From contig CALIBN010000047.1 in NCBI GenBank assembly GCA_938045545.1, positions 1 to 29,128 of the forward strand: a stretch of DNA of 29,128 nucleotides, written 5' to 3'. Both the position numbers and the translations under genes were made by a program. Shown here one piece after another: positions 13,585-29,128 of this stretch. Numbering within the stretch: the first letter of the stretch is position 1; every line of letters starts with the position of its first letter. The notes beneath the pieces are model-generated. The model made no database searches, was not told the origin of the DNA, and worked only from the letters and a program-made list of their open reading frames with translations. Source of the DNA: an uncultured archaeon (GTDB lineage: Archaea; Thermoproteota; EX4484-205; JAAOZP01).

Positions 13585-13599
13585 GAAAAACTTTTATTA
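13585..13599 (+). promoter_or_regulatory. BRE/TATA promoter of tRNA-Lys
   Basis: GAAAAACT-TTTATTA ending 26 nt before tRNA position 1. Confidence 0.65.
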
Positions 13600-13625
13600 C
13601 CCTCTTACGCAAGAAAAAGCACGGC

Positions 13626-13761
13626 GGGCCCGTAGCTCAGACGAGAAACATTTAAAAACGTCTCGGAGCAGCATGGTAGAGCAGCAGGCTCTTAAACAAG
13701 ACGGCAACATGGCACACGTGGAGACACCTGAGGGTCGAGGGTTCAAATCCCTCCGGGCCCG
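13626..13761 (+). tRNA. tRNA-Lys(CTT) with two introns: 13641-13671 (D-loop, 15/16) and 13695-13725 (37/38)
   Basis: Spliced sequence GGGCCCG TA GCTC AGCATGGTA GAGC A GCAGG CTCTTAA CCTGA GGGTC GAGGG TTCAAAT CCCTC CGGGCCC G. Both inserts fit BHB-type geometry. No encoded CCA. Confidence 0.92.
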
Positions 13762-13947
13762 CTCTAACCACATCCTATACTTAAGGTGAACACGAAACGC
13801 AATGGAGCGCTATTAATCAGCTTCCTTCCTCAAGCCTCACCGCCGGCGTATTTTCAGAGGCAGCGTCGAGGAAGGAAGAATCCTCTTCCCATGAGCCATG
13901 GAATGTTGCGTGAAGTCTCAAATTAAGGCGTTAGGGAAATAGCTGCA

Positions 13948-14353
13948 CCCGAGAAAGCAATACTCTTTGGGCTAATATCCTCTGACGGAAGTAACGCTTA
14001 TCATCAAAAAACTCAAAAGGAAGACGACATACGGATTATTCGACGAGATTTTACTCCAAAGATGGAGTACTTATAGAGTTATTTGATGAGCTATCTGGGA
14101 AGATGTATGATATGACACCACATCATTATGAAAGAAGAGATGTTTTATTACTGCGGCAGTATATTCCAAAGGCGTATTCTATGATTTAAGCAATTACGAT
14201 GTTAAGAAAGGGGTTTATGAATTTAGAGTTCCTCAAGAACATCTAGATTATGAGGGGAAGAGAGCATATTTGAAGGGTTTCTTATCTGGAGACTGAAGCG
14301 CACATATAGTTCATGGAAAGCGATTTCAAGTACGATTTAAGAGTGTGGCGTAG
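13948..14353 (+). pseudogene. Degraded two-motif LAGLIDADG endonuclease-like gene
   Basis: Motif 1 EKAILFGLISSDGS (13951-13992) and motif 2 RAYLKGFLSGD*S (14261-14299). Joining them needs two frameshifts, and TGA stands at the conserved Gly. Confidence 0.75.
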
Positions 14354-14908: not shown

Positions 14909-15007
14909 TGCGGAGGGTGGGATTTGAACCCACGAACCCCTGCGGGAAGAGGTCTATCCCCCGAGGTCTTGAGCCTCCCGCCTTTGGCCTGGCTTGGCGA
15001 CCTCCGC
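14909..15007 (-). tRNA. tRNA-Leu(CAA) with a 14-nt intron (nominally 37/38; 14954-14967)
   Basis: GCGGAGG TC GCC AAGCCAGGCCAAA GGC G GGAGG CTCAAG[ACCTCGGGGGATAG]A CCTCT, long variable arm, GTGGG TTCAAAT CCCAC CCTCCGC A. Confidence 0.92.
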
Positions 15008-27468: not shown

Positions 27469-28704
27469 GTGAAAAACAGCCGGGCGTAATCTACGACGAG
27501 GCTAGGGTTCCACCGTATTCTCTGCCAGACCCGCTTGTTTCCTCAGATGGGTTGAGGATCGTTACCTCGGAGCTTTGGATGAAGAGGAGGAGGCTGGAAA
27601 TACTTGAGCTTTTCCGCAGCCAAGTTTATGCCAGAACGCCGATTGATAAGCCTGAGGGAATGTTCTTCGAAATGTGGGATCTGGATCATGAAGCGTTGGG
27701 AGGCGAGGCAACTAGGAAGCAGGTTGCGATCAACTTAACTGGAAGCCCCGATGGGCCGATTATGGATCTACTCATCTATCTTCCGAATGGCCCACCGCGC
27801 CCCTGCCCGTTTTCCTGATGCTCAACTTCACGGGGAACCATACTTTTTACAACGACCCAGCGATAAGGCTTAGGGTGAGACCCGTGCAAGTGTTTAATAC
27901 TCTGGAGGAGAAGGATTTCTTTTCGAGCGATAGGCTCCGCGGCTGGGGGGATTTGCCTAAACTGGTTGATAAGACGCTTGAAAGAGGATATGGGTTTGCC
28001 ACGGTCTGTTACAACGATATTGATCCTGACTTCCACGACGGCTTCAGGAACGGTGTTCACGGTGTTTTTGACAGTTTATTCGGAGCAAGTCGCCCGCCGG
28101 ATGTCTGGGGCGCGATAGGCGCTGGGCGTGGGGGTTAAGCAGGGCTATGGATTACCTTGAGAAAGATGATGAGGTTGATGAGAAACGCGTCGTCATTGTT
28201 GGTCATTCGAGGCTTGGGAAGACAGCCCTGTGGGCCGGTGCGCAGGACGAGCGCTTCGCAATCGTAGTATCCAACAACTCCGGCTGCGGCGGGGCTGCTT
28301 TAAGCCGCCGAAGGTTCGGGGAAATCGTCAGAATCATTAACACTGTTTTTCCACACCGGTTCTGCGCGAACTTTAAGAACTATAATGATCGTGAGGATGG
28401 ACTGCCAGTGGACCAGCACATGCTTATAGCGTTGATAGCACCCCGCCCGGTTTACGTAGCCAGCGCCGACGAAGACCTTTGGGCTGACCCTCGTGGAGAA
28501 TTCCTAGCAACTAAGGCTGCAGACCAGGTTTACAGGCTACTTGGCACGGATGGGTTGCCGGCGGAGGAGATGCCGCCTTTAAACCATCCTGTAATGGGGA
28601 CAATTGGTTATCATGTTCGCTCTGGTGGACATGCCTTAACCCTATATGATTGGGAGAGGTACATAGATTTCGCGGATAAACATTTCAGCCGTAAACCGAA
28701 ATAA
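27469..28704 (+). pseudogene. CE15-type glucuronoyl esterase (4-O-methyl-glucuronoyl methylesterase-like), frameshifted
   Basis: YDEARVPPYSLPDPL, WGAIGA(W)[39 protein letters not shown] and DLWADP across three ORF pieces; apparent 1-nt deletions near 27472-27476, 27809 and 28123. Confidence 0.88.
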
Positions 28705-28885
28705 GCTTGAAAGCCTATGAGTTGCGAAACAATGTCCATTAGGTCTTTGAATAAATTCTGATCTGCCCATCCAGCCAAGAACTACTCAAAATCAGCCATT
28801 TGAAAACAGCCTCTTATGAACTACTCTATACAGTCTGCCTTAACATAGCGCACGCTAACTTGCACACTAAAATAAATGGAAAAGA

Positions 28886-28931
28886 TGCGGGGGGTGGGAT
28901 TTGAACCCACGAACCCCTGCGGGACTGGAGC
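28886..28931 (-). tRNA. Isolated 3' half of a tRNA-Leu (about positions 37-73)
   Basis: GC TCCAG TCCCGCAGGGGTTC GTGGG TTCAAAT CCCAC CCCCCGC A. Variable and T arms are identical to tRNA-Leu(CAA) at 14909; no matching 5' half in the window. Confidence 0.85.
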
Positions 28932-28996
28932 GAGAGAATAATCCGGGAAGCTTTTTAATTCAAATAAGGGTAATAATTTAGGGTAGTGATCCCGCT

Positions 28997-29128
28997 GTGA
29001 GGAAAGGGTGGTGTGGCTTTGACGGCTGCAAGGATTGTTACTATTTCTTTTTAAGGCTTTGCCGCGGTTGCTCTTTTAAGATGTGTCTCGTGGCCCAGTG
29101 CCAGAGGGGTTTTCAATACACCGGGATA
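28997..29128 (+). CDS. Cys-rich protein N-terminus (DUF3795-like spacing); runs off the right edge
   Basis: Manual translation from GTG: MRKGWCGFDGCKDCYYFFLRLCRGCSFKMCLVAQCQRGFQYTGI. Confidence 0.55.
   Translation, partial: MRKGWCGFDGCKDCYYFFLRLCRGCSFKMCLVAQCQRGFQYTGI

Follow-up and report, generated by a model that had tools for sequence, protein, structure and literature searches.

The window, by which we mean the whole stretch of DNA from an uncultured archaeon analysed here (29,128 nt), carries close to its right-hand end a 44-nt piece of a tRNA-Leu gene on the minus strand (28886..28929), followed to the right by the beginning of a divergent gene on the plus strand (28997..29128); 199 nt separate the tRNA fragment from the right-hand end of the window. 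The 29 kb to its left represent core chromosome and encode proteasome subunits, RtcA, FttA, an Sm protein, endonuclease V, TiaS, a ThiL-like protein and a glycosylation cluster. No integrase, transposase or other mobile-element gene was found in the 29-kb window. The TiaS protein encoded here is 92-72% identical to proteins named 'Thermoproteota archaeon' or 'Candidatus Brockarchaeota archaeon'. A glucuronoyl esterase (CE15-like) gene seems to be broken into two adjacent open reading frames in different frames (27818-28138 and 28147-28704, plus strand), the second of which alone matches the Pfam GCE_fung profile (positions 92-231 of 231).

Each of the three complete tRNA genes in the window is interrupted. 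The tRNA-Thr(CGT) gene contains a textbook hBHBh' intron at position 37/38. The tRNA-Lys(CTT) gene (13626-13763, plus strand, 138 nt) contains two or more intervening sequences, one of them located in the D-loop region and another 3' of the anticodon, and was missed both by ARAGORN and by Rfam at the gathering score. In the tRNA-Leu(CAA) gene (15007..14909, minus strand), a 14-nt intron lies inside a 6-nt repeat, GACCTC, and its position is ambiguous, from 36/37 to 42/43; at none of the possible positions did inspection by hand reveal a strict bulge-helix-bulge (BHB) motif with a 4-bp central helix, which suggests a splicing endonuclease of relaxed specificity. Between the tRNA-Lys and tRNA-Leu(CAA) genes lies the remnant of a LAGLIDADG homing endonuclease (14216-14293, plus strand), 69% identical over 26 amino acids to the LAGLIDADG part of P0122, a relative of the divergent gene. 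This lineage clearly processes many tRNA introns, noncanonical ones included.

The fragment itself reads as a perfect 3' part of tRNA-Leu, from position 39 to position 73. On the minus strand it comprises the 3' strand of the anticodon stem, TCCAG (28929..28925, positions 39-43), a 14-nt variable arm with a CCC/GGG stem (28924..28911), the T arm GTGGG-TTCAAAT-CCCAC (28910..28894), the 3' strand of the acceptor stem, CCCCCGC (28893..28887), and the discriminator A (28886). Like the window's other tRNA genes, it does not encode the CCA end. A T-rich stretch, which could be a terminator or the old downstream flank of a tRNA gene, follows immediately 3' of the discriminator (28868..28885); T runs of this sort are lacking at the three intact tRNA genes of the window. 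On its other side the fragment abuts the dinucleotide GC (28930..28931), which may represent positions 37-38 or may already be foreign sequence; read as tRNA, G37 fits and C38 is unusual. Further upstream the sequence is not tRNA (tcccggattattctctcgc, 28948..28930). The original prediction of an undecayed tRNA-Leu 3' half, preceded by non-tRNA sequence and followed by a T-rich tract, was thus borne out by direct reading and, for the 3' half, by alignment as well: the fragment is 97.8% identical over 45 nt to the intact tRNA-Leu(TAG) of locus L070 and 100% identical over 40 nt to locus L028. Shuffling gave a chance expectation of 0.00 for a 36-letter pattern covering the fragment. ARAGORN and Rfam at the gathering score did not call the fragment, and at E<=10 Rfam detected the T arm alone (14.5 bits, E=4.7). 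The heptamer CTCTCGC, which precedes TCCAG and resembles an anticodon loop at four positions, was considered as such a loop and rejected: it would place a Glu anticodon on a Leu body, and no 5' stem strand precedes it. We treated this likeness as accidental or as a remnant.

From the variable arm to the T arm the fragment is identical to the tRNA-Leu(CAA) gene of the window, whereas the acceptor strand differs by one base; the tRNA-Leu genes here share an identical block of 33 nt. As to the tRNA from which the fragment came, an NAG anticodon was present in all 16 intact tRNAs with a CTGGA/TCCAG stem among the fetched loci (CAG in 12, TAG in 3, GAG in 1), a sample drawn with a pattern that itself demanded this stem. 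The same 16 tRNAs all carry G at position 37, and at position 38 they carry G, A or T, never C. Since the sampled tRNAs with this stem have NAG anticodons, the fragment is the back part of a CUN-reading class II tRNA-Leu gene.

No 5' half was found anywhere in the 29-kb window, either through its acceptor strand or through an anticodon stem with an NAR loop, and Rfam at E<=10 revealed no further partial tRNA there; hence the 3' part is encoded apart from any 5' half within 29 kb. The original prediction had noted that, with no 5' half following it, the gene is not permuted. The 5' half of tRNA-Leu(CAA) cannot pair with the fragment: reading the two together gives one mismatch in the acceptor stem and mismatches at three of the five anticodon-stem positions, in line with the earlier statement that the two do not match. 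The non-tRNA sequence 5' of the fragment (28932..28948, minus strand) would be a leader if transcription started at about G28944. This predicted leader, GGAUUAUUCUCUCG, is approximately 14-15 nt long, and the region is AU-rich apart from CCCGG at its 5' end. Its complement was found neither in the 29-kb window nor in the 119 fetched loci. When the pairs of a BHB central helix with the predicted NAG loop were counted by hand, we obtained 0-1 of 4 at position 37/38, at most 2 of 4 at 38/39 and at most 3 of 4 at 39/40, compared with 4 of 4 for the tRNA-Thr intron of the window under the same geometry. This count arrived at the same best value, 3 of 4 at 39/40, that had first been given for the failure to build a perfect BHB. 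The computed fold of the leader plus the fragment consisted of the T arm and the variable arm only and was uninformative on leader pairing, and folds of the three tRNA precursors added nothing.

Upstream of the fragment lies an AT-rich, TATA-like box, TTATTACCCT (28967..28976, minus strand), that is identical to the box before the tRNA-Lys gene. Exactly two copies of it occur in the window, at 13594..13603 (plus strand) and 28976..28967 (minus strand), each at a distance of 26 nt from the sequence that follows: G1 of tRNA-Lys in the first case, the GG at 28944/28943 in the second. A TTATTA box at the same 26-nt spacing as that of tRNA-Lys had been noticed originally, and the identity extends over all 10 nt of TTATTACCCT. 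Over a longer range, 21 of 34 positions are identical between the two upstream regions, and this value was matched somewhere in the window by 6 of 20 shuffles; the overall likeness to the tRNA-Lys promoter is thus not above window-wide chance. A different motif, AAAAC-N0-3-TTTWA, precedes all three intact tRNA genes. It has 11 matches in the window (sites 13587, 15028, 17630, 2606 and 1155 among them) against 0.82 expected, an approximately 13-fold enrichment that was reached in 0 of 100 shuffles, and it is likely to be the BRE plus TATA consensus of this organism. It is absent from both strands upstream of the fragment. On the plus strand, the AT-rich box is situated 20 nt before the GTG start codon (28997) of the divergent gene and is equally well placed as the promoter of that gene, just as the original prediction had cautioned when it noted that the TATA element may serve the divergent Cys-rich gene.

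The first 44 codons of the divergent gene (28997..29128, plus strand) are present before it is cut by the window end, and they encode the Cys-rich N terminus of a protein of approximately 366 amino acids. Seven homologues are 86-93% identical to it. Full-length relatives score 27.8 bits with the Pfam TGT profile, the family profile matches the archaeal ArcTGT structure 1iq8 with an E value of 4e-6, and a structure model (pLDDT of 82.7) has 1iq8_A as its best fold match (E=1e-12); the family is therefore predicted by these models to combine a TGT fold with a Cys-rich N terminus. The family (P0121-P0229, approximately 360 amino acids) comprises 107 clusters, all of them from this lineage or without a named source, and recurring locus-tag prefixes point to 2-3 paralogues per metagenome-assembled genome (MAG), with many copies truncated or frameshifted. 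Because the family is confined to the lineage and its identities resemble those of the housekeeping protein TiaS, the TGT-like gene looks vertically inherited, and no match to it was found in the PHROG, phage or plasmid collections. In P0122 the gene is interrupted by a LAGLIDADG open reading frame 5 codons beyond the point at which the window ends, and a similar insertion may be the cause of the contig break. Longer open reading frame calls in four relatives showed conservation upstream of the TGT-like gene as far as approximately position 28946, a stretch that takes in the promoter region and excludes the leader and the fragment.

Genome contigs were scanned with one degenerate pattern for copies of the 3' part and for the predicted 5' half, which yielded at least 118 loci. 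Among the matches listed, neither the lineage of the window nor any locus related to the window beyond the tRNA itself was represented. The 18 listed matches to the 5' arm all stem from other lineages and all run into a tRNA-Leu gene as far as displayed, one of them being cut by the locus end and another running past the printed stretch. Through the 3' arm, 100 of the listed loci were matched. In 94 of these a 5' acceptor strand lies no more than 400 nt away (a single case, at 227 nt, is doubtful); contig ends truncate 4 others, and the remaining 2 (L012 and L046) are orphans. Both orphans come from Bathyarchaeia MAGs, and each is read through by an open reading frame for an 'Archaeal phage integrase' (L012, 1137-2072, minus strand; L046, 87-998, plus strand) with matches to PF16795 (E=3e-4 and 5e-9) and phrog_5127. 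In both, a tRNA-Leu(GAG) 3' part lies within the integrase frame and begins at the anticodon loop. Since an SSV-type integrase frame reads through each of them, the two orphans are integration junctions. Elements of this type are little described in Bathyarchaeia. A junction of this kind at the fragment of the window is excluded because no open reading frame reads through it: the longest ones across the fragment on the plus strand have 21-36 amino acids, and an 84-aa stop-to-stop frame on the minus strand has no relatives among 1.84 billion representatives. The sole match of that frame, to a repetitive protein of 7545 amino acids, was dismissed as meaningless.

Collectively, we give an even chance to the interpretation that DNA integration or rearrangement left the fragment behind as a relic, and we consider a relic more likely than one half of a two-piece tRNA. 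A DNA event in the anticodon region would have separated this 3' part of a CUN-reading tRNA-Leu gene from the 5' part; site-specific integration of a mobile element is the most likely event. Such an integration would regenerate the tRNA at one end of the element and leave a displaced 3' copy at the other, which would put the element past the right-hand end of the window; alternatively, an insertion or a rearrangement would have broken the gene. The fragment would then have no function; the AT-rich box would serve as promoter for the divergent TGT-like gene, and the T-rich tract would be what once flanked the tRNA gene downstream. Both the DNA event and the fragment's lack of function are what we infer from the layout of the locus.

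Several observations argue for a relic. The fragment runs from the anticodon region to the tRNA 3' end, as an att duplicate requires, and this extent is what archaeal integrases duplicate. In a phage collection, a 44-nt tRNA-Leu 3' part closes the record of Archaeoglobus profundus pleomorphic provirus 1, where it lies beside the integrase gene of that provirus, and it is 90.9% identical to 28885..28928 of the window; the integrase gene of an Aeropyrum virus in that collection shares 26 identical nucleotides with the fragment. Together with L012 and L046, both of which are integrase-linked and were the only orphans among the listed 3'-arm loci, the provirus bears out the caveat, attached to the original prediction, that anticodon-to-3' fragments are the classic scar of an att site. 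The features expected of a split half are weak here (an AU-rich leader, a central helix of at most 3 of 4 pairs and no AAAAC-N0-3-TTTWA motif), the box stands 20 nt before the GTG of a gene with which the upstream DNA is conserved, and mobile DNA is active around the TGT-like family, as the LAGLIDADG insertion in P0122 demonstrates. Against a relic stand the lack of any integrase or mobile-element gene in the 29 kb to the left or the 199 nt to the right and a right-hand gene that has no PHROG, phage or plasmid match and looks native to the lineage. Moreover, the anticodon loop is missing here, whereas L012, L046 and the provirus att site retain it entire, Leu anticodon included; the intact twin tRNA that this explanation calls for was not encountered; no decay is visible in the fragment; and its TATA-like box agrees with that of the tRNA-Lys promoter at 10 of 10 positions and at the same 26-nt spacing.

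Split tRNA genes are known from Nanoarchaeum equitans, Caldivirga maquilingensis and four Desulfurococcales. It is possible, if on balance unlikely, that the fragment represents a tRNA-Leu(NAG) 3' half that is joined by trans-splicing and has a promoter of its own, with transcription starting at approximately 28944. [quoted passage not shown] The leader of approximately 14-15 nt is only slightly shorter than the leaders plus trailers of about 17-22 nt in Table 1 of PMC3218864. Split sites other than 37/38 are known (30/31 and 32/33), the lineage handles many tRNA introns, unusual ones included, with three of three tRNA genes of the window interrupted, and no integrase or other mobile hallmark lies beside the fragment.

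Nothing complementary to the leader is present in the window or in the 119 fetched loci, however, and a leader rich in A and U stands against the G/C-rich leaders of known halves, which typically form a stem of approximately 12-14 bp with the partner's trailer. The best central helix forms 3 of 4 pairs and not a canonical BHB, the BRE/TATA motif that precedes the window's three tRNA genes is missing, the promoter likeness of 21 in 34 was reached by 6 of 20 shuffles, and the AT-rich box fits the divergent gene too. The evidence leans against a working split gene because the leader is short and AU-rich, no canonical BHB can be formed, the motif is absent and the box suits the neighbouring gene. 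A working tRNA-Leu(NAG) 3' half with a short AU-rich leader and a noncanonical junction at about positions 38-40, which perhaps arose when the TGT-like gene was inserted into the anticodon loop, is slightly more doubtful still. Among the papers that literature searches listed, a preprint on Asgard introns included, we found no report of split tRNAs in the Brockarchaeota lineage.

We regard as improbable, a little more so than the trans-spliced half, that the tRNA gene was broken by an event involving no integrase, such as the insertion of a TGT-like copy or an inversion with its breakpoint in the anticodon loop. It is just as improbable, in our judgement, that the other piece then lies elsewhere and is not rejoined, with the remaining tRNA-Leu(NAG) genes covering decoding. 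The TGT-like family, with several paralogues per MAG and many truncated or frameshifted copies, is compatible with such a break, the esterase gene on the left is also broken, and tRNA genes are common points of rearrangement according to PMC3218864. A dead fragment should decay, though, and this one has not, and the window shows neither a repeat nor a second breakpoint. An assembly artefact, that is, a chimeric join at the contig end, is highly improbable even though the window ends only 199 nt away inside a multicopy gene family and the tRNA-Leu genes have a 33-nt identical block in common, given that the junction at 28930 lies outside this block, that a join within the block would leave a whole tRNA and that relatives share the sequence upstream of the TGT-like gene to approximately 28946.

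Under either reading the fragment belongs to a known kind of feature and would be of more than modest interest only with a complementary 5' half. As a relic, it would show where a tRNA-Leu gene recombined in an archaeal lineage about which little is known, and its interest would be purely local. As a split half, it would be without precedent among class II tRNAs and in a Brockarchaeota-like lineage, and it would extend split tRNAs beyond a few hyperthermophiles and to a tRNA with a long variable arm. It would also mean that halves can be joined through no more than a weak AU-rich leader and a relaxed junction, and it would bear on the origin of split tRNA genes from insertions into tRNA genes.

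With the split tRNAs of Nanoarchaeum equitans, Caldivirga maquilingensis and the Desulfurococcales, the fragment shares a lone 3' part that starts near the anticodon loop, an AT-rich box approximately 40 nt upstream and a non-tRNA leader, and the host lineage here is rich in introns. It differs from them in that its leader is AU-rich and not G/C-rich, it forms no canonical BHB and it lacks the local BRE/TATA motif. In PMC3218864, known split halves are described with G/C-rich leaders that form a stem of approximately 14 bp beside a canonical BHB and with a BRE/TATA promoter like that of other tRNAs, and no split tRNA in its Table 1 is a tRNA-Leu, unlike the fragment.

Partial tRNA fragments, ascribed to integration or rearrangement, are a second known class. 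Chan et al. 2011 (PMC3218864) count six of them in A. pernix against one split tRNA, and Sugahara et al. 2012 (PMC3293823) describe an uncultured archaeal (Caldiarchaeum) population in which a mobile element has dispersed tRNA fragments. Like the fragments of A. pernix (PMC3218864) and the Caldiarchaeum tRNA-Thr (PMC3293823), ours is an orphan piece in an archaeal chromosome. The Caldiarchaeum fragment also stems from an uncultured population; ours lies at a contig break, and the recombinase-bearing 1.8-kb element that adjoins the former in that account (PMC3293823) has no visible counterpart in the window.

The att duplicates of Archaeoglobus profundus pleomorphic provirus 1, L012 and L046 have an integrase beside or through them and keep the anticodon loop, whereas the fragment described here has no integrase in either place, has lost the loop and adjoins a gene without viral or plasmid relatives. 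It resembles them in belonging to the same tRNA family, in its nearly identical extent (approximately 44 nt), and in combining an original-looking downstream flank with foreign sequence on the 5' side.
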